Shown here: positions 3,510-20,000 of the stretch, piece by piece
Numbering within the stretch: position 1 is the first letter of the stretch
Layout of the letters: each line of letters starts with the position of its first letter
Origin: an uncultured virus (IMG/VR IMGVR_UViG_3300025605_000006)
Lineage: Duplodnaviria > Heunggongvirae > Uroviricota > Caudoviricetes
Direction: 5' to 3' (one strand)
IMG/VR virus record: IMGVR_UViG_3300025605_000006
DNA length: 20,000 bases
Notes under the pieces: generated by a model
Databases searched by the model: none
What the model saw: only the letters and a program-made list of their open reading frames with translations
What the model was told of the DNA's origin: nothing
Made by a program: the position numbers and the translations under genes

Positions 3510-3619
3510 GACTCCAAAGGCTGGACGCTCGGACTTGCGGACTCTCGGACTCTCGGACTTGCGAGAAAAACTTCAAGAAACCCCTTGACAATCGCAGCAA
3601 TCCACGGTAAGGTACACAC

Positions 3620-4413: not shown

Positions 4414-4501
4414 CGGGTAGACCTTACCATGAGGCTACTTCGTGGCGCAATAGGCAAAATAACCTATTGCGTAGATGCTCTCCAGCTTGTATAGTGAAGC
4501 C

Positions 4502-4792
4502 ATGAACAACGCCTTGAGCAGCAACCATTTCAGCACAGACATCCAGACCGGGGATGCGATGGAGTGGCTGAGGATCACTCACCCGGCCGAGTACCGCGGC
4601 ATCCTTCAGGAGTTCCCCGAGTACGAAACCCGCGTCATGAGCGGGGCGTGGTGGGACACCGACGAGATGGGAGTTGACTTCGAGTGGGGATCCTGGCTTA
4701 CCGATGCCGTCGAGGCCACCGGGCTCGTGTTCTGGGAGGAGGGCGAACCCTTCGCTCTCACCCGAGACGAGGAGGGGTCCCCGACCTTCTAG
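4502..4792 (+). CDS. acidic Trp-rich hypothetical protein, 96 aa
   Basis: TTGCGT 4467-17-TATAGT 4490, ATG 4502 leaderless. Confidence 0.8.
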   Translation: MNNALSSNHFSTDIQTGDAMEWLRITHPAEYRGILQEFPEYETRVMSGAWWDTDEMGVDFEWGSWLTDAVEATGLVFWEEGEPFALTRDEEGSPTF

Positions 4793-6945: not shown

Positions 6946-7464
6946 ATGAGCAAGGCACCAGCCATAATCGTGGATCGGGACGGGACGCTAGCCTCGGTGG
7001 CACACGTCGCCCCCACCACAAGGGACCGGGACGCATGGAGAGAATACAACGCTGCTCTCCCATTCGACGCCCCAGTCCCCAACGTGGTCAACATGCTCAA
7101 CTGGGCACGCAGGACGCTCCCGGACGTCACGATCATCATGACATCGGGGCGGGCAGCGGGAGACTTCCCCGGAGATATCCGCAGGAAGCGCCACATGGAA
7201 GGGTGGATAGCGAAACACCGACTCCCCATAGACGTCCTTCACATGAGGGAGGGGGGGGACCAGCGTAGAGACTCCATCGTCAAAGCTGAGATGTTCCACT
7301 CCTTCATTGCTGACAAGTTCGACGTCCTCCTAGTCATAGACGACAGACCACAAGTCTGTGACCTGTGGAGAGACCTTGGACTTCCCCTCATCCAAGTGAA
7401 GGATCCGGGGATTCTTCCACCAATCGCAGAAATGTCTCGACAAGCGGCAACGGTAGCCCTATAG
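6946..7464 (+). CDS. HAD-superfamily phosphatase, similar to the 3'-phosphatase domain of T4 polynucleotide kinase (PseT)
   Basis: IIVDRDGTLA (DxDGT), TSGR, MREGGDQRRDSIVK, VIDDRPQV..LWR.LGL; leaderless promoter TTGACA 6910. Confidence 0.85.
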   Translation: MSKAPAIIVDRDGTLASVAHVAPTTRDRDAWREYNAALPFDAPVPNVVNMLNWARRTLPDVTIIMTSGRAAGDFPGDIRRKRHMEGWIAKHRLPIDVLHMREGGDQRRDSIVKAEMFHSFIADKFDVLLVIDDRPQVCDLWRDLGLPLIQVKDPGILPPIAEMSRQAATVAL

Positions 7465-7877: not shown

Positions 7878-8172
7878 CGTACTGTAACCCCTATAGCACC
7901 GTCACCCTCCTGCCGGGGTGCGTGACTTTGGACGGGCTGGGGCACTTGGCAGGGGCATGTTAGGGACGTCTAACATGTCGGACCAGCCTCCGGACCGTAC
8001 AGGTTCGGAGGCAGTCCGTTTTAGGGGGACTGGAGGACTTTCGGACTGGAGGACACTCGGACTGTCGGACTGTTGTGTCGTCCGGTCCGGTCGGGTGGGG
8101 GGCTGTGGGTTCACCCGAAGAAATCCAAGAAAAGGCTTGACATCCCCTCACTATCCATGGCATCATACTGGC

Positions 8173-8634
8173 ATGAACCCGAGCGACACCGATACCGTCA
8201 CCATCCGAGCGACATTCGACGCCTACGAGTGGGTCGACATCTGCACCTTCTGTGGATCCGAGAACATCTCGGAGCCTCGGGCAGGCACCGGCAAGGTGAC
8301 CTGCGAGAAGTGTGGGGGATGCGCCCTTCCTGACACGCACGACATCCCGCTGGAAGCTAACGGGTGGGTCGACCCGATGAACCCATGGGGCTCCTTGGAG
8401 CAGGATGGGTATGACGACTCCCGCGAGCCTGACTCGATCACGCTTCCTTTCGTGGAGGCCCTGGGGTTTCTTCTCGACTTCCCTGGGGGAGTGTGGGGCG
8501 TCACGGACTGCGAGGCTTCCACTGACTGGCGTACCGGCCGCTCCAAGCGTGTTACCGCCCACGTCGACGGTGACCCCAAGGTGGTCGACTTGCTGCTGCT
8601 GGCTTTCTGGGAGGTTTCCGAGCGGGTCGCCTAG
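8173..8634 (+). CDS. Zn-ribbon-containing hypothetical protein, 153 aa
   Basis: TTGACA 8137, CATCAT -10, ATG 8173; CTFC...CEKC. Confidence 0.75.
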   Translation: MNPSDTDTVTIRATFDAYEWVDICTFCGSENISEPRAGTGKVTCEKCGGCALPDTHDIPLEANGWVDPMNPWGSLEQDGYDDSREPDSITLPFVEALGFLLDFPGGVWGVTDCEASTDWRTGRSKRVTAHVDGDPKVVDLLLLAFWEVSERVA

Positions 8635-8844
8635 GGGCACCGGGGGGGGTGAGGCTCGCCCTTCCCCTCCGCTGGGGCAGGCACTCCAGCAGGGGGGGGA
8701 CGTGGGTTCTCGGGACTTTAGAAAGTCCGGACTTACCTCGTTCTTAGCTTATTGGACTGGGACCTGTCCGGTCCTGGTGTCCGGTCCTGGTGTCCGCACC
8801 CCGGACTCCCGATGTTAGGTTGCCCTAACATGGGGTGTGTGGCA

Positions 8845-9162
8845 TCACGACCACACTATGTCTCGGCCGTGGGCCTCCGCCCATCGGGCTGCGCTCAGGA
8901 GACTGGCAGCGCGGAGCTGCCAGTACCCCTCTATGGCATGGATGGGGGCGACCGCGTCCATGGCAGCCGCCCGTACCATGATGTCATCCGATGCCAGGAT
9001 GATGGTCGCTGGCACCTCGGATCCTGTCGGCTCGAATGGAACCTCAAGGATCTGCTCGAACATCGTTCGAGCGTTCCTGTTGTTCAGGTCGATGATGAGC
9101 CCTTCATCCCAGAGGTGGTCGAACTCATCGGCCCGGTAGGTGGGGGTGATCTGTGTTCCCAT
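8845..9162 (-). CDS. hypothetical protein, 105 aa (MGTQITPTY...)
   Basis: minus TTGACC-17-TATCTT, leaderless ATG 9162. Confidence 0.75.
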   Translation of the reverse strand: MGTQITPTYRADEFDHLWDEGLIIDLNNRNARTMFEQILEVPFEPTGSEVPATIILASDDIMVRAAAMDAVAPIHAIEGYWQLRAASLLSAARWAEAHGRDIVWS

Positions 9163-9363
9163 GCCATGAAGATACAGCACCTCACTAGAGCGGTCAAGTA
9201 GGCAAGATATCCCAATTTTGGGGCTTGTGTTGCGTTGTGAGGTTTGCTACCTTCTATGTCACCTTTCTCTCGTTAGGGGGGCTTCTAGGGGCCTCTCAGA
9301 GGATCCGAAGAAATCCGAAGAAATCGCTTGACCCCCACCACAACAAGGAGTACCGTTAGACAC

Positions 9364-9492
9364 ATGAACACCGAACACAACGGCCCCAAGCGGGGGCGAG
9401 GCTACTGGGGGCGGAAGGCAGAAGCCAAGGCCGTCAGCAAGCGTCAGCGTCGGATCAACGACCGCAAGGCCTGCAAGGAGGACCGCGACTGA
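9364..9492 (+). CDS. basic 42-aa protein MNTEHNGPKRGRGYWGRKAEAKAVSKRQRRINDRKACKEDRD
   Basis: TTGACC 9328-17-TACCGT, ATG 7 nt later. Confidence 0.75.
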   Translation: MNTEHNGPKRGRGYWGRKAEAKAVSKRQRRINDRKACKEDRD

Positions 9493-9671
9493 AGGAACCG
9501 GACACCACAAGAGAGGGAAGGGGGGTCCACCCCCCCCGACCCCGGACCGGACCCGGACCCGGACGTCCGAAGGGGACGTCCAGCCAAAAGGGGAGGGCTG
9601 TCCTGCGGACGTCCAGTTGTCCGTCCCGCGGACAGGACATGGGAACCCCCCTCCGGGGGGTTTCCATCCTT

Positions 9672-9872
9672 TCAGTAGTAGTCATCCTGTCGGGCGAGGC
9701 AGTTATCCACCATGGCCTCCTCCTCCCGACTGATGCAGGCGGGGCAGTACGCTTGTCGCTCATCCGGGCCATCCTCGCGGGAGCCGAGGAACATGAGGAT
9801 AGATTCCATCTCATCCTCCGGGGCAAGCTCCCCGCAGGAATCGCACTCGATGAGGTCGTCGTTGTTGTTCAT
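9672..9872 (-). CDS. acidic Zn-finger microprotein, 66 aa
   Basis: minus TTGACA 9907-17-CATCAT; CDSC...CPAC. Confidence 0.75.
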   Translation of the reverse strand: MNNNDDLIECDSCGELAPEDEMESILMFLGSREDGPDERQAYCPACISREEEAMVDNCLARQDDYY

Positions 9873-9938
9873 ACCCTAATGATGGGGCATGACGTTAGGA
9901 ATGTCAAGTAGAAATCCGAAGAAATCCGAAAAAGTTTG

Positions 9939-9958
9939 GATCGAACGAGTGTTCGATC
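9939..9958. promoter_or_regulatory. consensus actinobacterial LexA SOS box
   Basis: GA-TCGAAC-GAGT-GTTCGA-TC. Confidence 0.7.
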
Positions 9959-10080
9959 GGACGGCCCCTAGCAGGTCCTCGGCCAGGAGTCAAATCGGAC
10001 GGCCCCTAGCAGGTCCTCGGCCAGGAGTCAAATCGGACGGCCCCTAGCAGGTCCTCGGCCAGGAGTCAAATCGGACGGCC
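9956..10080. repeat. 38-bp tandem repeat, 3.3 copies
   Basis: unit ATCGGACGGCCCCTAGCAGGTCCTCGGCCAGGAGTCAA at 9956, 9994, 10032, partial 10070. Confidence 0.95.
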
Positions 10081-10082
10081 GA

Positions 10083-10098
10083 TCGAACACCTGTTCGT
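10083..10098. promoter_or_regulatory. LexA SOS-box-like site
   Basis: TCGAAC-ACCT-GTTCGT. Confidence 0.65.
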
Positions 10099-10160
10099 AG
10101 GCAAGACATCCCAAAGGTGGAGGCTTGACTCCCCTATGGGGGTGCTGTAACGTTACGGGT

Positions 10161-10366
10161 GTCGACAGGGAATCCCCCACTAGTGCGGGGGCTGGAGACT
10201 TGAGGGGTACTAGAGCCGCAGGGGCGGGCTATCAGCGCCCATAGGGGAGACACCGAAGTTCCCCACAAAAATGGCCGAGGTGGAGATAGCATCCCACCGC
10301 AGGAAAACGAGCCGGGCGCAGAGCAGCCAGCAACCGGAGCCAAGGTCTAACATCCCCCCGTCGAAC
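10161..10366 (+). ncRNA. candidate structured ncRNA 2 (multi-way junction with pseudoknot)
   Basis: TTGACT 10125-17-TAACGT, no ATG at +1; closing TCGAC/GTCGA; several GC hairpins; loop CTAGTGC complementary to GTACTAG 10207-10213. Confidence 0.55.
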
Positions 10367-10473
10367 GAGCTACCGGGCAGGGGGGCAGGGAGGGAGGCAG
10401 ACCCCCCCAACTTTCTCGAAAAAAAATCGGGAAAGGGGTTGACACCTCCAACCTTGCTAGGTATAGTGAAGAT

Positions 10474-10891
10474 ATCAAGAACGCCGGGGGTCACTGCCGA
10501 AAGGTAATCCCGGCCCCGAAAGCCCCACCGGGAAACAAGGGGATCCGGGGGGAGGGTAACCTCCCCCCACTAGCAACTTTACAACTGAATCTTGGAGGAA
10601 ACCTCGAACCTGTGAGGAACCATCTGGGGCGGGCAAGCTTGACCGCCACCCGACGCGAGAGCGTAGGAGTAACCCGATGAATCACCCCCTGACGACTAAC
10701 GACCACGACCATCGCCCTGGCAGCGGTGGCGATTCCTGAATGAAGGGGTGGGGAGGGCGAAAGACAAGGTGAGAGAAACAGGAGAACGGGACCCGCTCAA
10801 ACTGAGAGTAACCGGGGAGTGCGCACAATCCGGGGAGGGTAGGGGAGAGAGGGACCCGGTCGAGGTTTCCTCCAAGATTCGGTTGTAAAGT
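10474..10891 (+). ncRNA. candidate structured ncRNA 3: GNRA-hairpin leader plus 252-nt domain closed by a 32-bp stem
   Basis: TTGACA 10439-17-TATAGT, +1 is ATC; GAAA/GTAA/GAGA tetraloop hairpins; inverted repeat 10576-10607/10860-10891 with one U-G pair. Confidence 0.6.
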
Positions 10892-11134
10892 CCTTGACAG
10901 GACGCCAGGACAGTGCAACAATGAAGGACACCAAGAGGGGACGAGAGAACTTGTCTCGAAGTCCTTTTAGGACAGGACAAACGGGGGGAAAGATGTCCGT
11001 CCCCGGACCCGGACGTCCGCTCCGGACGTGGTGTCCCGTCCTCCATGTCCGTCCCAGGACTAGGACGTAGGTGGGGGCTGTGTCCGTCACTCCTAGCGGA
11101 CTTCACTCCACCGCAGGGGCGAAGTCCGTTACGA

Positions 11135-11443
11135 TCATGGGGCGGGAAACAGCTCCGGGAAGCAGTGAGGGCACCGCCAGCGGAGAGCCGGATCGAGCCA
11201 GACGAGCGGGTTGCCGTGGTGTCCGCAGCGAGGTGCGTAGGCGTTCGGGGTGTCCGGGGACGGGTCCGCGTACAGGCCGACGTTGTCCGTCCGGTCCTCC
11301 CCTCGGAGAAACCATGTGATGACGGTGTCCGCTGGGAACTGGGAGAGGAAGTCGATGACGTCCTCGCAGGTCAGCTGATGTCCGGTGGGGAGGTAGTCGG
11401 TGTATTCGACTCCCCCGTAGGTGTGTGCTGCGGTATCTGCCAT
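11135..11443 (-). CDS. hypothetical protein with C-terminal Zn-finger-like motif, 102 aa
   Basis: minus TTGACA 11478-17-TAAAGT, leaderless; CGHH...WRCPHC. Confidence 0.75.
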   Translation of the reverse strand: MADTAAHTYGGVEYTDYLPTGHQLTCEDVIDFLSQFPADTVITWFLRGEDRTDNVGLYADPSPDTPNAYAPRCGHHGNPLVWLDPALRWRCPHCFPELFPAP

Positions 11444-11545
11444 GCCCTTACTTTAGGGTATGTGGCTCCGATTGTCAAGGGGTTTTTTGAGAAATGTCCA
11501 GTCCTGGGGACGGACGTTGGACCCGCCTGGTCTGGTCCGGGGTGG

Positions 11546-11671
11546 TCAGTAGCGGACCTTTCCGCGGCAGGCCTTCCGGTTGGACTCCTTTTTGCGGTCC
11601 TTGAAGGTGTGTGCCCGCTGATTGACTCGCAGCATGTTGCCGGTTGCTCGGGGTGTCTGGTACTTGCTCAT
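11546..11671 (-). CDS. basic 41-aa protein MSKYQTPRATGNMLRVNQRAHTFKDRKKESNRKACRGKVRY
   Basis: minus TTGACA 11707, CACAAT; paralog of 5857-5994. Confidence 0.8.
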   Translation of the reverse strand: MSKYQTPRATGNMLRVNQRAHTFKDRKKESNRKACRGKVRY

Positions 11672-11771
11672 GTATGGATTGTGGCATGAGGGCGGGCTAC
11701 TTGTCAACTAGGTTGTATCACCTAAACAAAAGGTGTTGACAAGGGGTGAGGGGTGGAGTATCTTCTACTAC

Positions 11772-12038
11772 ATGAACACCGATGAGATCACCGCAGTCGT
11801 GCACCAGTGCACCACCAACGACCGCAACGGAAACCCGCGACGGGTCTACGTTGCACTCAATGAGTGCGGCCATATCCTTGGCACCGAGGACGAGGGCTAC
11901 GCTGGTACCCCTCAGTGGCTCCGCGACCTTCACGACCGGGGAGTCTGGGAGTTGAGAGTGGAGGTGACCCCCGCTCAGTACCGTCGAATGGTCAAGCTGG
12001 GGGACCAGCTGAGGGAGGTCATGGAAGCTCTCCCCTGA
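11772..12038 (+). CDS. hypothetical protein, 88 aa (NDRNGNPRRVY motif)
   Basis: TTGACA 11736-17-TATCTT, ATG 11772. Confidence 0.8.
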   Translation: MNTDEITAVVHQCTTNDRNGNPRRVYVALNECGHILGTEDEGYAGTPQWLRDLHDRGVWELRVEVTPAQYRRMVKLGDQLREVMEALP

Positions 12039-12091
12039 ACTTTTCTCGAAAACTACTTGACATCCCCGGAGAGGGATTGTAGAGTAGTGAA

Positions 12092-12260
12092 GTCAAAGCG
12101 GTTCACCGCTTCAAAAACCCAACCGTAGGGGATTCTGCGGAGGCTGCCCGGAGCGAAAGAACCGGGACGGGGCCTGGGCTCCGACAGGGTGACACGTATC
12201 GCACCCCCCAGGAATCTAGTTCGCCAGGACCTCCCGCAGGACACAACTTGCGGGGAGTCC
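12092..12260 (+). ncRNA. candidate structured ncRNA 4 (three-way junction plus 3' hairpin)
   Basis: TTGACA 12057-17-TAGAGT, +1 is GTC; stems AAGCGG/CCGCTT, GATTC/GAATC, CGGAG/CTCCG, CCCGG/CCGGG, GGGTG/CACCC. Confidence 0.5.
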
Positions 12261-12438
12261 GCTGTCCGGCCCTAGAAAAGTCCTTGACATTCCGCGCAGT
12301 CCATGCGAAAATGAGGACGATGAAGAAGGTGGATGTCCCCACGGACGTCCCTAGGGACAGGACAGTCCAGTCCGGTTGGATTCTCTGTCCGTCCCACCGG
12401 ACTGGACGTAGGACCCCGGAGGGTCCAGGGGGGGGCTG

Positions 12439-12732
12439 TCAGTCCTCCAGGGTGGCAGCCAAGGCAGCCAGCTTCAGCTTCCACGAGTCCCTCACTGCCC
12501 GCTCGGTGTCCTCGTCGGGAGTGACGTCGTCCAGTTCGCTGCGGAGGGATCCGACAAGGTGTCGGTCCCACTCCCCGGAGGTCATGGGTTCACCGTCCCA
12601 CCATCGGGGGGCTGAGGTCCCCTGCGAGAGGCCCCCTGTGGAGGCCACAGCGTACAGCATGGAAGCCTGTCCTCCGTGCCATCCGACCGCTAGGTCCCGT
12701 TCCTGTTCGGTTGCCGTGTAGATCGTTGCCAT
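12439..12732 (-). CDS. hypothetical protein, 97 aa (WHGGQASMLYAVASTG motif)
   Basis: minus TTGACA 12767-17-TATCTT, leaderless. Confidence 0.8.
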   Translation of the reverse strand: MATIYTATEQERDLAVGWHGGQASMLYAVASTGGLSQGTSAPRWWDGEPMTSGEWDRHLVGSLRSELDDVTPDEDTERAVRDSWKLKLAALAATLED

Positions 12733-12826
12733 ACGTGAAAGATACCGAACCCCGAGGGGGATGTCAAGTGAAAGAATCAGAAAAAACAGCTTGACACTCT
12801 AGCGGGGCGGGTGTTACTGTTACTGC

Positions 12827-12847
12827 ATGAGCAAGCGACACGTCTAA
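12827..12847 (+). CDS. leaderless minigene MSKRHV (or remnant of an ardC-like 5' end)
   Basis: TTGACA 12791-18-TACTGT, ATG 6 nt later, TAA after 6 codons. Confidence 0.4.
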   Translation: MSKRHV

Positions 12848-12949
12848 CGGAGCGGTGCTCTACGGGTGAGCTAGACGGGACGCTCCTACGGGGGCTGTCC
12901 TGGTGTCCGGTCCCAAGGGACGGACAAGGGACAGTGTTGACGTCCAACT

Positions 12950-12972
12950 CTAAACCTCTAGTTGAGGTTGAC
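12950..12972. promoter_or_regulatory. MerR/FtsR-like palindrome (further copies at 14942, 15597, 15671, 15787, 18504 and in the terminal repeat)
   Basis: CTAAACCTC-TAGTT-GAGGTTGAC; consensus CTCAACCTC-N5-GAGGTTGAG. Confidence 0.6.
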
Positions 12973-13106
12973 GTGGGACGGGACGTCCGCTAGAGTGCTG
13001 GCGTCCTGGCGGTGTGGACTGTCCGGTCCGAGTGTTGTGTGTCTTGTCCTTGGGGACGGGGACCCTCGCCCTCGATGGGGGGGCTGAGGTTGACGGGACC
13101 CTCTTG

Positions 13107-13396: not shown

Positions 13397-13503
13397 GTGT
13401 CTAGCTTGCCATAGGTGGGGGTAGCTTGTCAACCCCTAATGTTGGGTTATATCACCTAAAGATTCCACTTGACGCGACCCCCACCCCGTAGTACCTTCAA
13501 GTC

Positions 13504-13701: not shown

Positions 13702-13748
13702 TGGGCGGGGGCTTGACACCCCCACCCCCAACATGGTACAGTCCACTC

Positions 13749-13919
13749 ATGACAGAACGATGTCAGTGGGAAAACTGTCCCCGACCAGCAACCTGGGAAG
13801 TCCACTATGAGGACTACTACATCACCCTATGCGACAAGCACAAGGTCCGCAACGAGCGGGGGGACCAGTTCCTCCACGGACTGTCCCTAGGGACCGTCCT
13901 GGGGGCCATCTTTCGTTGA
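13749..13919 (+). CDS. Zn-finger microprotein, 56 aa
   Basis: TTGACA 13713-18-TACAGT; CQWENC...LCDKH. Confidence 0.75.
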   Translation: MTERCQWENCPRPATWEVHYEDYYITLCDKHKVRNERGDQFLHGLSLGTVLGAIFR

Positions 13920-13951
13920 CAAGGTAGAACTACCCGGCTAGACTAGGCCAC

Positions 13952-14116
13952 ATGAACTGTTTCGTGACCAACTGTAACGCTAAGGGTGTTACCCTTGACA
14001 ACCGGGGGCGAGTGTGCTGCAACGACTGCCGAGACTTTCTCGACACCCCTAGCACTCCCCACCGAACAATCCGAGAAAAATTCGGAAAACTGCTTGACGG
14101 GATCCCCTGGCGCTGA
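13952..14116 (+). CDS. Cys-rich microprotein, 54 aa (MNCFVTNC...CCNDC)
   Basis: TTGACA 13916-17-TAGACT, ATG 7 nt later. Confidence 0.65.
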   Translation: MNCFVTNCNAKGVTLDNRGRVCCNDCRDFLDTPSTPHRTIREKFGKLLDGIPWR

Positions 14117-14128
14117 TAAGGTACACAC

Positions 14129-14341
14129 ATGAACAACTTCACCACCAAGAACACCAACCGCAAGGCCCACCGGGACCACTCGCAGAAGGGTGGCACCGAG
14201 CGCCGCGAGGCACTCGACGCCCGAAACGGACGACGGCTCCGGGGCGGGGCGTTCGGGACGGAGGACGCCAAGGTGTTCAACCGCCTGGCAGTCGGGACAA
14301 CCGGCACCCCCCGACAGGAGAAGTCCGGAGAGGCAGCCTGA
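14129..14341 (+). CDS. basic hypothetical protein, 70 aa
   Basis: TTGACG 14094-17-TAAGGT, leaderless. Confidence 0.75.
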   Translation: MNNFTTKNTNRKAHRDHSQKGGTERREALDARNGRRLRGGAFGTEDAKVFNRLAVGTTGTPRQEKSGEAA

Positions 14342-14342
14342 G

Positions 14343-14513
14343 ATGGACCCCAAGGAGGACCCAGCAGGGGACTCCAAGGGGTCCCTTGAGGACTGGCTTG
14401 AGAAAGCGGACCAGGCCATCCACGAGTCCCTCTCCAACATGAAGGACCCGGTGGGGGCCGAGGTCCGCTGGCGCAACGCAAGAAAAGCCAGAAAAACCTC
14501 GAAAACCCCTTGA
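14343..14513 (+). CDS. hypothetical protein, 56 aa (MDPKEDPAGD...)
   Basis: ATG 1 nt after previous stop, GGAGAGG upstream. Confidence 0.5.
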   Translation: MDPKEDPAGDSKGSLEDWLEKADQAIHESLSNMKDPVGAEVRWRNARKARKTSKTP

Positions 14514-14544
14514 CAAGGCTAGCGGGGTGAGGTAAGTTGAACAC

Positions 14545-14748
14545 ATGAACAACGACACCAACCCCTACGAGCTGGCAGCACGCAACCTCAAGGCGGGCAA
14601 GCTGGCAGCCTACCTCGCCCGCAACAACATGGCGGATGTCAACCCTGACTCCCTGCACTGGGATACCCTCGCCATCCTGGCAGGCACCAACCCCCCGAGC
14701 GAGGCCACCAAGCTGGTCGTCATGGAGATGCTCCGGGCAGGCAGCTGA
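14545..14748 (+). CDS. hypothetical protein, 67 aa
   Basis: TTGACA 14510-17-TAAGTT, leaderless. Confidence 0.8.
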   Translation: MNNDTNPYELAARNLKAGKLAAYLARNNMADVNPDSLHWDTLAILAGTNPPSEATKLVVMEMLRAGS

Positions 14749-15025
14749 CCCCGGACCGTAAGACCCCCCCAAGGGGGGGGGCAGGTCCCGTGTCCGTCCC
14801 AAGAAAAGTCCTTGACAGGCAGAACTGTCCCTGCCACAATAAGGACAGAGGGGGAGAGAGGGCAGTCCCAGCGGACTGTCCGGTCCCAGGGACTATTCGT
14901 CCCGTCCCGTCCGTAAAGGACTGCTCGTCCGCTATCGGACCCTCAACCTAAGGTTGAGGTTTAGAGTCGAGAAAGTTTCAGAAAACCCCTTGACAAGGTT
15001 GGCGGGGGGCTGTATCTTCCTACAC

Positions 15026-15379
15026 ATGGCACGACTCACCGCTACCACCTTCCCCGCAATCGACGCCCTTCTTCGTGGGGGCCGAGACAAGATCGGGCAT
15101 AACACGACCGCTCGGCACGAGGGGGGCGACATTCTCGTTACCCTTCACCGCTCCGACATCGTGCGCCTGACCCCCACCGGGGAGGTGTTCGTCAACCTGC
15201 ACGGGTGGCACACCATCACCACCCGCGACCGCTTGAACCAGTTCGTTGCGGCCAACTTCCGCAGCGACGGCAACAGGGGCACCATCATGACCCGTGTGGA
15301 GAGCGACGGCACCGTCAAGGTTCGCCCCATCGGGGCGGGCTGGCATCTGGTCGCCACCGCCACCGGCCCCCAGTTCTGA
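15026..15379 (+). CDS. phage-type hypothetical protein, 117 aa (GWHTITTRDRLN motif)
   Basis: TTGACA 14990-17-TATCTT, ATG 15026. Confidence 0.8.
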   Translation: MARLTATTFPAIDALLRGGRDKIGHNTTARHEGGDILVTLHRSDIVRLTPTGEVFVNLHGWHTITTRDRLNQFVAANFRSDGNRGTIMTRVESDGTVKVRPIGAGWHLVATATGPQF

Positions 15380-15856: not shown

Positions 15857-16207
15857 TCAAGGAACGATGAAGTCCTCCAGCCCAACCCTTGACACTCGAT
15901 AGGCACTGTTGAGAAGTCGGGACTTGAGGATGTAATCCGCCCCAACGGGGTTCGCAGTATGAGCGAAGATGCACCCGATGTCCAGAGGGTCCTCGAAAAA
16001 CACTTTCTCCTCCAAGAAGTCCACTACTGGACGTATCGTGTCCTCTCCTCCGAGGTCGTGATCCAAATAGAGGGCATCCCAGGACTTCTGGACTTCTGGA
16101 CTCTCGGACTGGAGGACTTGAAGGGCGTCCTTCGATGTGCGAACATGGTGGACGTCGTGGCCAGGCTTGACCAAAGTCCGCTCGTCGTCTATCACCAAGA
16201 TCCTCAT
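15857..16207 (-). CDS. cyclic-phosphate-processing receiver-like domain protein, 116 aa
   Basis: MRILVIDDER, LYLDHDLG, HTANPVG motifs; minus TTGACG 16243 promoter. Confidence 0.75.
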   Translation of the reverse strand: MRILVIDDERTLVKPGHDVHHVRTSKDALQVLQSESPEVQKSWDALYLDHDLGGEDTIRPVVDFLEEKVFFEDPLDIGCIFAHTANPVGADYILKSRLLNSAYRVSRVGLEDFIVP

Positions 16208-16882
16208 GGGTCCAACATACAGCGCCCAAGGGGTGTTCGTCAAGCAAAAAGGGCGTCCCCAGCCTCAAAAACGTTCAACTCTGCCCATTCCCCCGCCAAA
16301 ACGGACTGAAGTCAATGGAAATCACAGTGTCCGTCCGTGGATTCGAGCCTAAAAACACTTGAACGAGGGGTTTGTCAAGGGTAAAACTGTCCTCGACCGG
16401 CTCGAAACCCTTGAATCTTCAAGGACAGTCCGGGCAAAACCCTTGAAAAGGGTTGACAGAGGGGGGAGCGGGCGCTTATACTGCCCCCAGGAGCCCGGAA
16501 ACCCTAAAAACAGTCAACTTTCCTTGCGCTCCTCACTGAAAAGGGATACAAGGAGGCCTTGTTTGCAGTTTAGGGACTCGTTTTTGCTTCAAAAACCCTC
16601 AAAACCCTTGACTTTGTCTCTTTGATGAGCGATTATCGGACGAAACTTTACCGAAAACGGTAAAGTCCTTGACGCGAGAGGGGTGTCCAAGCTAGTTTGG
16701 ACTGTGTGGAGGGGTTTGGGGCCGGGATAGCGGTCCGGTCCTCGGGACTGGACTGTTCTGGGTGTCTTTATAGCGTCCAGATGTCCGGACCGTCGTCTCT
16801 ATAGTGATATTGTCCGTCCCTGTCCTTGGTCCGTCCGGGGGTCCTCTCGTCCAGGTGGGGGTTGTGGTGGGGTCCGCGGAGG

Positions 16883-17078: not shown

Positions 17079-17139
17079 GACTACATCTAACCATGAGCGA
17101 CTGAGCGAAGTCAACCCCTAATGTCGGGATATCTTGCCT

Positions 17140-18416: not shown

Positions 18417-18625
18417 GTGAACCTAGGACCGGAGACCACCTAGAGTGGTCCTATGTCCGAGTCCCCAGGACGCATCCACTGTCCGGTCCCTAAGGACAGG
18501 ACTCTCAACCTCAAGTAAAGGTTTAGGGTCCACCCCGGACGTCCTCGCAGCCCGCCACAGTCCCCGTCCAACTAGGTGAAACATTCTGCTTGACAGGACG
18601 GAGCGTCCCATGGTTAGATGTGTGC

Positions 18626-19375
18626 ATGGAAACGACAGCCACCCAGACAATCGACAAGGCCGAGGCTGGACCCCTCAAGTTCTGGGTCGTCGGTGGGGCC
18701 GTCCGTGACGGCATCCTCGGGACCACAGTCAAGGACGTGGACTTCGCTGTGGAAGCTCCGTCCTTCACTGCGATGGTCGAGGGACTGGAGGGACTTGGCT
18801 TCAAGATATTCCAAGTCCGCGAGTCCTTCCTGACAGTTCGGGCGGGGGTCCCCAACGGACACGCTCTCCGCAAGGTCACCAAGGACGCTGATTTTGTGAT
18901 GTGTCGTGCCGATGGTCCTTCGACCGATGGGCGACGACCGGACTTTGTCACCCCCGGTACCATCCTTGACGATCTGAAGCGTAGGGACTTCACTGTGAAC
19001 GCCATGGCCCAGGACCCGGACGGTGGGCTGCTGGACCCCCATGGGGGACTGAAGGATCTTCGATCAAGGACCCTGAGGTTCGTCGGGGACCCCATGGAAC
19101 GCATCACCGAGGACGGGCTGAGGGTCCTCCGAGGCTTTCGCTTTATGGTCACAAAGACCATGACCCCGGACCCCGCCACGGACGCCGCGCTGCGCTCTGA
19201 GGTTGCTGCCGAGATGCTGGCAACGATCCCAGTCGAAAGGGTCCGCGAGGAAGTCCTCAAGATGTTCGAGGGGGACCCCGTTGCTCCCATGACTCTCATA
19301 GCAGGACTTCCCTCAAGGACCCAGGACGCCATCTTTCGGGATGGGCTGAGGTTGACCCCTAGCCTCAAGCAGTGA
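18626..19375 (+). CDS. cca: class II tRNA nucleotidyltransferase (CCA-adding/poly(A) polymerase family), short 249-aa form
   Basis: VVGGAVRD...KDVDF, RRDFTVNAMA, DPHGG, EDGLRVLRGFRF, ERVREE; promoter TTGACA 18590. Confidence 0.9.
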   Translation: METTATQTIDKAEAGPLKFWVVGGAVRDGILGTTVKDVDFAVEAPSFTAMVEGLEGLGFKIFQVRESFLTVRAGVPNGHALRKVTKDADFVMCRADGPSTDGRRPDFVTPGTILDDLKRRDFTVNAMAQDPDGGLLDPHGGLKDLRSRTLRFVGDPMERITEDGLRVLRGFRFMVTKTMTPDPATDAALRSEVAAEMLATIPVERVREEVLKMFEGDPVAPMTLIAGLPSRTQDAIFRDGLRLTPSLKQ

Positions 19376-19721: not shown

Positions 19722-20000
19722 GTCCTGGTGTCCAGCCCGTAGGGACCCGGACGCTAACCCTCAAGTTGAGGTCGAGAGCGGACCGGGACGTCCCCTCGGG
19801 TCCTGGTGTCCAGCCCGTAGGGACCCGGACGCTAACCCTCAAGTTGAGGTCGAGAGCGGACCGGGACGTCCCCTCGGGTCCTGGTGTACAGTCCGTAGGG
19901 ACCCGGACGCTAACCCTCAAGTTGAGGTCGAGAGCGGACCGGGACGTCCCCTCGGGTCCTGGTGTCCAGCCCGTAGGGACCCGGACGCTAACCCTCAAGT
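19722..20000. repeat. 78-bp tandem repeat, at least 3.5 copies, running off the window
   Basis: units at 19722, 19800, 19878 (2 substitutions), 19956; each contains CTAACCCTCAAGTTGAGGTCGAG. Confidence 0.95.

Follow-up and report, generated by a model that had tools for sequence, protein, structure and literature searches.

A candidate phage non-coding RNA closed by a 32-bp helix in the style of ribosomal RNA operons

We describe a candidate non-coding RNA element in a 20,000-nt stretch of DNA (hereafter the window) from an uncultured virus of the Caudoviricetes (IMG/VR record IMGVR_UViG_3300025605_000006). The element, at about 10474-10968, is built around two 32-nt arms that would pair into a single long helix, is preceded by a strong promoter-like sequence directed into it, and varies between strains in a manner consistent with pairing in + strand RNA. 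With moderate confidence, we interpret it as an orphan phage non-coding RNA whose closing helix resembles that of ribosomal RNA (rrn) operons and would be of a type cut by RNase III. The features on which this interpretation draws are as follows.

10419-10467, + strand: promoter, with an A-tract (10419-10426), the -35 hexamer TTGACA (10439-10444), a 17-nt spacer and the -10 hexamer TATAGT (10462-10467)
10474-10575, + strand: predicted 5' leader (from the fold), with a putative start at A10474 and a 7-nt spacer before the arm
10576-10607, + strand: 5' arm of the 32-bp helix (inverted-repeat search, arm word scan and fold)
10576-10590, + strand: boxA-like 15-mer ACTTTACAACTGAAT that opens the 5' arm, agreeing with the consensus at 13 of 15 positions
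10608-10859, + strand: enclosed segment of 252 nt (minimum-energy fold), with a G-rich tail
10665-10669 and 10677-10739, + strand: AGGAG, 7 nt before an ATG, and the 20-codon open reading frame (ORF) that this ATG opens
10860-10891, + strand: 3' arm of the 32-bp helix (inverted-repeat search and arm word scan)
10894-10922, + strand: second promoter-like site, TTGACA-17-AACAAT with TG, 3 nt past the 3' arm and lacking a +1 start codon
10926-10968, + strand: terminator-like compound hairpin, GGAC (10926-29) and GUCC (10961-64) around CGAGAG-AACUU-GUCUCG (10942-58), then UUUU (10965-68)

The long helix and its probable transcript

The two arms lie exactly where an earlier, sequence-only reading of this DNA had placed them, and are 97% complementary, with 31 of 32 positions forming Watson-Crick pairs over a structure of 316 bp overall. 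Their sole deviation, T10586 opposite G10881, would be a U-G pair on the + strand and a C-A mismatch on the - strand. The window contains two occurrences of the arm word, one exact and one with 1 mismatch, compared with 0.00 expected from 200 shuffles. Furthermore, in G001, a 148,553-bp phage record (IMG/VR, 92% complete) that is 97-99% identical to most of the window, only two exact inverted repeats of at least 16 bp were found whose arms lie within 1 kb of each other, of which the one studied here is the longer and the other is a 16-bp hairpin at 13459-13500. Block-shuffled versions of the same genome (n=20) contain 0.05 such repeats each, none of them reaching 21 bp or more, and no local inverted repeat of at least 16 bp was found in Brevibacterium phage Cantare, the nearest cultured relative. 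The whole element folds at -191 kcal/mol (z-score -6.4 against shuffles), and it is the long stem alone that is thermodynamically exceptional. The 5' arm is unchanged in G001 and, over 10578-10607, in the strain represented by run X19.

The promoter ahead of the element matches the sigma-70-type consensus at 11 of 12 positions, and stands among an excess of promoter-like sites in the window (38, compared with 4.3 ± 1.9 in shuffles). It is 84% like the promoter of a leaderless gene at 4489-4513, which belongs to the same repeat family. In 19 of the 27 strongest window promoters the -10 hexamer is followed at 7-8 nt by an ATG, which begins an ORF of between 6 and 284 codons, and this region of the phage is predicted to consist of leaderless genes in series, each with a single promoter of its own. 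The element promoter is one of the remaining eight, which have no +1 start codon: neither ATG nor GTG occurs 5-10 nt past its -10 hexamer, and ATC is found where the leaderless gene at 4489-4513 has ATG. Consequently, this promoter does not drive a leaderless mRNA, while the distance from hexamer to ATG in the leaderless genes suggests, by analogy, that transcription would start at about 10474. Scans of the window for ORFs and protein families found no credible ORF over the element region. At the other end, the window shows no more than a mild excess of terminator-like sites (27, compared with 16.0 ± 4.3), and the transcript end at 10968 is therefore a prediction.

Contigs from RNA-labelled libraries of two studies run over the element. 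Within 8000-13000, those of X15 cover 10172-10858 only, and those of X19 cover 8832-9068, 10402-10528 and 10578-10917; uncovered parts prove nothing in either case, and contig depths (X15, 50.7 over 10639-10817 and 13.1 over 10172-10408; X19, 11 over 10578-10917) are unfit for ranking parts of the region. In X16, the breaks between contigs at 10576/10605 and 10862/10880 reflect a 31-letter assembler meeting a 32-nt inverted repeat, and are not RNA ends. Taken as a whole, we consider a + strand transcript, rather than a feature of the DNA only, to be the most likely nature of the element.

Some further observations concern transcription around the element. A purine-rich stretch without ORFs follows a promoter-like TTGACT-17-TAACGT (10125-10153), and an X15 contig lies over 10172-10408. 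Since contigs of X15 and X19 bridge the element's own promoter (10388-10542 and 10402-10528), read-through from further upstream may be a second route of transcription into it. Strong promoters without a +1 start codon are also found in 12057-12290 and 14812-15050, the 200 nt after each folding better than shuffles (z-scores of -2.9 and -3.0), and these two stretches are further non-coding RNA candidates. The initial transcribed sequences past the promoter-like sites P10894 and P14812 are alike (AAGGACA...AGAGGGG).

Variants from two related strains, in runs X16 and X19, were read against the predicted pairs. A compensatory change found in two strains (T10613A with A10778T) converts U-A to A-U in the helix 10609-13/10778-82, at a pair probability of 0.91. 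Three one-sided changes (C10717T, A10863G, A10925G) each replace a Watson-Crick pair by G-U on the + strand and by a mismatch on the - strand, the second of them lying within the 3' arm of the long stem, opposite T10604. Over 10578-10917 the X19 strain carries nine substitutions and one 2-nt insertion, with one change only in an arm, and within the element G001 differs from the window only in the 10628-47 apical loop and by one 2-nt indel. Apart from C10794A and G10938A, which disrupt predicted pairs, the other strain changes fall in loops or unpaired stretches, including the same 10628-47 hairpin loop. On a basis that is thin and confined to a single species, the variants appear to point consistently to pairing in + strand RNA and not to a DNA palindrome.

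An alternative explanation is that the arms act at the DNA level, as a protein-binding or cruciform palindrome of a terminal region similar to the injection-stop (iss) region of phage T5, as an origin-type element, or as the two boundaries of a segment that can invert. Both arms are near-perfect and their G+C is low (13/32, compared with about 60% in the surroundings), many repeats lie nearby (a 118-nt inverted pair, the 78-nt tandem repeats of 19722-20000 and a 38-nt unit present three times at 9956-10080), and the T5 region offers a precedent for repeats that act as DNA (as outlined in 10.1101/866236). However, both arm polymorphisms are transitions that preserve pairing on + strand RNA only, a DNA-level function gives no reason for the compensatory pair at 10613/10778 or for the + strand enrichment of GNRA hairpins described below, and the promoter is directed into the element. 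Moreover, a search of G001 for integrase and resolvase families matched neither serine nor tyrosine recombinases, and all four other contigs spanning both arms (G001, L014, L015 and L016) are oriented as the window is, although three of these are 100% identical and may not be independent. We consider a DNA-level role quite improbable, and rejected its invertible-switch form given the single orientation and the lack of a recombinase family in G001; a rare inversion is possible, since contigs (Logan) break at the arms and could miss it.

The arms could also represent the terminal inverted repeats of a non-autonomous mobile element resembling a miniature inverted-repeat transposable element (MITE), and the sequence-only reading had named additional copies with target-site duplications as the observation that would overturn an RNA interpretation. 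No such copies emerged from G001 or from the metagenome and genome collections. A MITE would suit the overall size and shape, with 32-bp terminal repeats on a 316-bp unit and an arm composition that differs from that of the interior. However, the element is single copy in G001, its flanks (CTAGCA and CCTTGA) show no target-site duplication, and it is present in every strain seen. Outside this phage, a metagenome scan with the 22-nt arm core returned one single-arm chance match, in addition to three contigs 100% identical to the window, and a scan of a genome contig collection returned 0 matches. Thus, a MITE is hardly tenable, and this explanation is already close to refuted.

Leader, interior and searches for relatives

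The predicted leader contains a hairpin at 10483-10514 with a GAAA loop and a 9-bp hairpin at 10547-10568 with a GUAA loop, in a 5' region with a z-score of -1.67 (14 of 200 shuffles fold equally well). The proposal that GNRA hairpins precede the stem proved sound: 10474-10968 contains four GNRA-capped hairpins, compared with 0.35 expected, and none of 2000 shuffles reaches four. Their loops lie at 10499 (GAAA), 10556 (GTAA, on the 9-bp stem) and 10657 (GAGA), with a fourth within the 3' arm, where the hairpin would compete with the long stem. Across the window, GNRA hairpins number 27 on the + strand (12.8 ± 3.6 expected) and 12 on the - strand.

The interior stems named in the sequence-only reading are all recovered in the minimum-energy fold, namely GGCGG/CCGCC (10628-32/10643-47), ACGC-GAGA-GCGT (10653-64), CACCCC/GGGGTG and ATCGCC/GGCGAT (10711-16/10728-33). 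They yield hairpins at 10628-47, 10653-64 and 10711-33, in addition to an interior helix between CCUGU (10609-13) and ACAGG (10778-82). Half of the six distinct + strand G-quadruplex-type motifs in the window lie in or just before the element (10375-10394, 10530-10556 and 10832-10853), the last of these being retained in G001 despite a 2-nt insertion, and there are 0 such motifs on the - strand.

The 20-codon ORF reported within the helix is also present as described, and raises the question of whether the element is instead an mRNA for a 20-residue peptide, with the helix clamping its ends to stabilise the message or to gate translation. The ORF lies wholly within the helix, with AGGAG at a spacing of 7 nt from its ATG, the rest of the interior is not specially folded, and tiny genes do occur in the window, in the form of leaderless ORFs of 32-56 codons after other promoters. 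However, strong window promoters drive leaderless genes in 19/27 cases, the peptide would be hydrophilic, and the only variant in the ORF, C10717T (X19), is non-synonymous (Pro to Leu) yet leaves the RNA pair with G10726 in place as U-G. Furthermore, AGGAG-like words (GGAG/GAGG) are not enriched in the element, numbering 16 against 13.8 ± 3.4 with 164 of 500 shuffles reaching 16, and the one before the ATG may therefore be a chance occurrence. A peptide message thus seems to us rather improbable. The same counts led us to reject an anti-Shine-Dalgarno sponge.

At gathering score, an Rfam scan of the whole window assigned no family to the element, and at E up to 5 over 9900-11150 it gave a single chance match on the - strand (10310-10430, E 1.6), so that the Rfam scan proposed in the sequence-only reading produced no + strand match at either setting. 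The search of 9900-11150 also detected no similarity to STnc100 or DicF, and there is no tRNA or tRNA-like call in the element. No match to 10400-10960 was found by blastn (word size 11) among 50,697 phage records, while megablast of the whole window against phage records, and exact scans of viral contigs with one arm word and two interior words, were empty or trivial. Attempts to reach related loci through a neighbouring 102-aa protein gave 29 pattern matches, none confirmed. The homologues of this protein, among them some at 74-83% identity on ENA contigs, have only a mobile zinc-ribbon-like module in common and hence yield no syntenic relatives; the portal protein led to one identical contig.

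Several specific classes were considered and set aside. A retron msr-msd RNA was rejected because no reverse transcriptase (RVT_1) match exists anywhere in G001, and a bacterial Y RNA with Ro (Rsr) because G001 has no TROVE match and the element neither an Rfam match nor a tRNA-like call. Intercistronic RNase III sites of the T7 type were rejected given only two local inverted repeats of at least 16 bp in 148 kb, and an antisense regulator of phage genes because the only matches, of 12-14 nt, are at chance level or are promoter words. Circularisation, which had been raised as a possible fate of the RNA, is not supported, there being no RtcB in G001 and no contig joint across the stem. A 93-nt X15 contig rejoins 10858 to 10796-10817, at the 8-nt direct repeat GGGACCCG and not at the stem, and this odd joint could be explained by a strain with a 63-nt duplication, or by template switching if the RNA is abundant.

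The boxA-like site and the rrn parallel

The boxA motif against which the phage 15-mer was scored was derived independently, from best matches to the commonest word shared by sampled Actinomycetota 16S leaders, and TCYTTGARAACTSAAYAG is present in 15/15 of these leaders. Among loci L099-L116, 14 operons provide enough spacer sequence to be counted, and in 13 of these a 22-nt boxA segment pairs at 19 or more of its 22 positions with the spacer up to 300 nt after 16S (shuffled controls, maximum 19). Therefore, boxA constitutes the 5' strand of the leader-trailer helix in the sampled Actinomycetota and, since it lies inside that helix, the antitermination signal and the processing helix overlap. 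A second boxA often occurs after the complementary spacer segment, ahead of the 23S gene.

The phage 15-mer occupies the same helix position as boxA does in those 13 operons. Rrn leaders are described as having the order boxB-boxA-boxC, with a leader-trailer helix, an overlapping RNase III site and a tethering model for their action, and boxB stands at the place that matches the phage GUAA hairpin (in the account of PMC10250234). The 9-bp stem of that hairpin stops 7 nt short of the phage site, and, in an uncontrolled comparison, most sampled Actinomycetota leaders also fold a hairpin there. Sites scoring at least 13.2 bits, as the phage site does, number eight in the 297,078 positions of G001, where the phage site is ranked 8th (2nd in the window), and simple arithmetic gives a chance of about 5 in 10,000 that one of them would fall inside the 5' arm. 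The E. coli rrn boxA is given as UGCUCUUUA, with U where Actinomycetota carry G (per the text of PMC2724277). We rate a boxA function for the phage 15-mer as possible. No sequence similarity was found between the element and the sampled rrn loci, and captured host rrn sequence was dropped as an explanation.

If the element is a non-coding RNA of this kind, a strong host-type promoter would fire at about 10474, and the first 100 nt would form GNRA-capped hairpins. The boxA-like 5' arm would pair across the 252-nt interior with the 3' arm to give the 32-bp duplex, and transcription would terminate at the hairpin 10926-10968. We infer that the duplex would be a substrate for RNase III of the host (an RNase III of the phage's own was not found in G001), whose action would release an RNA of about 260-290 nt with paired, protected ends, and would also yield a leader fragment of about 110 nt. 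With less certainty, host NusB/S10 might be recruited by the boxA-like sequence, which would shield the untranslated transcript from Rho and keep the 5' arm tethered to the polymerase until the 3' arm has been transcribed, as has been proposed for rrn operons. An early, host-directed role for the released RNA would be assumed by analogy with the RNAs of cluster A mycobacteriophages discussed below.

Several observations weigh against this interpretation. The sources of the RNA-labelled contigs are flagged 'RNA? (probably DNA)' for X15 and 'not shown transcribed' for X19, and the contigs are silent on strand, ends and level. Two strain variants, C10794A (pair probability 0.99) and G10938A, disrupt predicted pairs, and covariation support is very thin because all sequences come from one phage species (95-100% identical). 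Stable RNAs, moreover, seldom contain a perfect 32-bp duplex. Taken by itself, the 252-nt interior has no better fold than shuffles (z-score +0.08 on the + strand, with 107 of 200 shuffles as good; likewise +0.09 and 105 of 200 on the - strand) and matches no RNA family, so that the enclosed 'domain' of the sequence-only reading is not supported as such. With regard to boxA, the 13.2 bits of the phage site compare with 19.2-25.5 for real sites and with an average of 15.3 for the best site in a shuffled genome, placing it within genome-wide chance, and the site has T, at 10580, where G is invariant in 15/15 leaders. The T-variant pattern was found in 5 of 401 Actinomycetota genomes, against six control matches, and in 0/5 cases within 1.5 kb of a 16S start.

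The sequence-only reading had proposed a stable RNA matured like rRNA, with an rrn-like stem carrying boxA-like sequence, and these proposals survive in part. A + strand transcript is most likely and the layout of helix and site matches that of the sampled operons more closely than expected, whereas the interior structure, the missing RNA family, the substitution at the invariant G and the chance-level score do not bear the proposals out. A bolder version, in which the phage copies the rrn logic of its host (promoter, leader hairpin and boxA helix, with Nus recruitment and RNase III release, or as a Nus/RNase III decoy) for a non-ribosomal RNA, seems to us unlikely, but if true would provide, for the first time outside the lambda nut paradigm, a phage RNA that is aimed at the rrn machinery for antitermination and processing or is matured by it. 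Among the 10 of 484 papers listed by a literature search on boxA and actinophages, none contains the word boxA and no description of such a cassette was found, which is not proof that none exists in print.

A decoy function has also to be considered in its own right, whereby an abundant early double-stranded RNA with a boxA-like site would soak up RNase III, Nus factors or a defence system that senses double-stranded RNA, and the interior would be irrelevant. Such a function would explain why an invariant helix and leader stand beside a poorly folded and poorly conserved interior (in X19, a single change affects an arm), and why the phage has only one helix of this kind. However, the window protein scan found no defence or counter-defence gene next to the element, and the compensatory pair 10613/10778 suggests that the interior fold matters somewhat. 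We give the decoy explanation only a slim chance.

The significance of the element differs between these explanations. Large actinophages make abundant early non-coding RNAs that have no known function (as reported in PMC5712189), and the element, with a unique, perfect RNase III-type helix and a 5' strand resembling the host rrn boxA, gives bench experiments a concrete starting point. Should NusB/S10 bind to the boxA-like arm, this would illustrate how a phage shields an untranslated transcript from Rho, and would indicate that the chaperone and processing route of rrn operons can be borrowed for other RNAs. As a by-product, the signals for antitermination and processing in the sampled Actinomycetota emerge as one sequence (13/14 operons). 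Should it prove to be no more than a DNA repeat, or a hairpin that encloses and stabilises a tiny ORF, the element would be an ordinary one.

Source phage and comparison with known systems

Judged on sequence, the window derives from a large tailed phage. The proteins encoded in G001 include an HK97-type capsid protein, portal and tape measure proteins, a DnaB-type helicase, RecA, ThyX, an amidase carrying peptidoglycan-binding repeats, an intein-containing class II ribonucleotide reductase and a protein of the mycobacteriophage L5 gp82 family, and the record also has 36 tRNA genes. The portal and capsid proteins of G001 share 44-49% identity with their counterparts in phages of Gordonia, Brevibacterium and Streptomyces, which makes an actinobacterial host likely; RecA is uninformative in this respect, at 53-58% identity to many phyla. 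The window stretch is present in activated-sludge and wastewater runs of 10 studies, 14 DNA runs containing at least 88% of its words, and we regard its source as a large, lytic-looking, actinophage-like phage from activated sludge.

Identifiable genes of the window encode an ArdC-type anti-restriction protein, a PNKP-type phosphatase, a cREC receiver domain and a CCA-adding enzyme. Three of these belong to a gene set of RNA-repair type, with the PNKP phosphatase domain at 6946-7464, the cyclic-phosphate-processing receiver domain at 15857-16243 (- strand) and the CCA-adding enzyme at 18590-19375, to which G001 adds an RlaP nucleotidyltransferase (13737-14546); RNA ligase and RtcB were not found in the phage. 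Inteins with LAGLIDADG or Hint domains occur in three large G001 genes (40520-45964, 74888-79456 and 105381-107210), two of which are the ribonucleotide reductase gene and a ThyX-like gene.

Repeats are numerous in the window. Three exact 38-nt tandem repeats (9956-10080) lie between divergent promoters and are enclosed by a 25-nt inverted repeat (9942-9966/10073-10097), a set that looks like a protein-binding array or a group of operators. The word TTCGTAGGCAAGAYATCCC occurs at 9196, at 10090 and, inverted, at 17126. GGAC runs at 8-nt spacing are found at 3523-3569, 8027-8073 and 16082-16120, and GGAC/GTCC words are very common in intergenic stretches (e.g. 10990-11080). The 78-nt tandem repeats at 19722-20000 continue past the window end, and a 151-kb metagenome contig of the same phage terminates within them (by arithmetic from scan positions); these repeats may therefore mark a genome end or an assembly breakpoint. 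A 118-nt inverted pair (5882-5999/11541-11658), 78% complementary and 5.5 kb apart, has one copy on either side of the element, and recalls the 131-bp inverted pair of the T5 first-step-transfer region (as outlined in 10.1101/866236).

Among the systems with which the element may be compared, the rrn leader-trailer helix resembles it in following a strong promoter and leader hairpins and in being a long helix between the flanks, with boxA at the place where the element has its boxA-like sequence. In E. coli this helix has 30-44 bp and contains an RNase III site (PMC10250234, in its account of rrn leaders). In contrast to rrn operons, the phage element encloses 252 non-rRNA nucleotides that belong to no RNA family and are not specially folded, and lacks downstream tRNA or 23S genes; in place of the mismatches and G-U pairs found in rrn helices, its own helix is perfect.

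The T5 iss region is similarly an untranslated, repeat-rich terminal stretch in a large siphovirus with many strong early promoters and tRNA genes, and is described as rich in repeats and palindromes, including a 131-bp inverted pair 3.2 kb apart (per the text of 10.1101/866236). It acts as DNA, however, and is defined by DnaA boxes, whereas variation in the phage element points to RNA pairing.

Phage RNase III sites offer a parallel in that a substrate for the host enzyme would be built into a phage transcript. Early RNase III sites of T7 are several short intergenic hairpins with internal loops. The element, in contrast, would be one 32-bp helix over 252 nt, unique in 148 kb.

The early RNA of cluster A mycobacteriophages, transcribed from Pleft, shares with the element an actinophage setting, a strong early-type promoter and, as predicted for the element, an untranslated transcript of about 500 nt that lacks any ORF of more than about 30 codons and lies near a genome end. 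In L5, D29 and StarStuff this RNA is abundant, comes from the right genome end, is processed into species of 100-400 nt and has no known function (as reported in PMC5712189). The account given there mentions neither a long closing helix nor a boxA for these RNAs, and blastn against the phage collection detected no sequence similarity, leaving a resemblance of kind only. Expression, processing and toxicity were measured for the cluster A RNAs, whereas for the phage element we only infer them. The cluster A early RNA is the closest functional precedent for the element described here.

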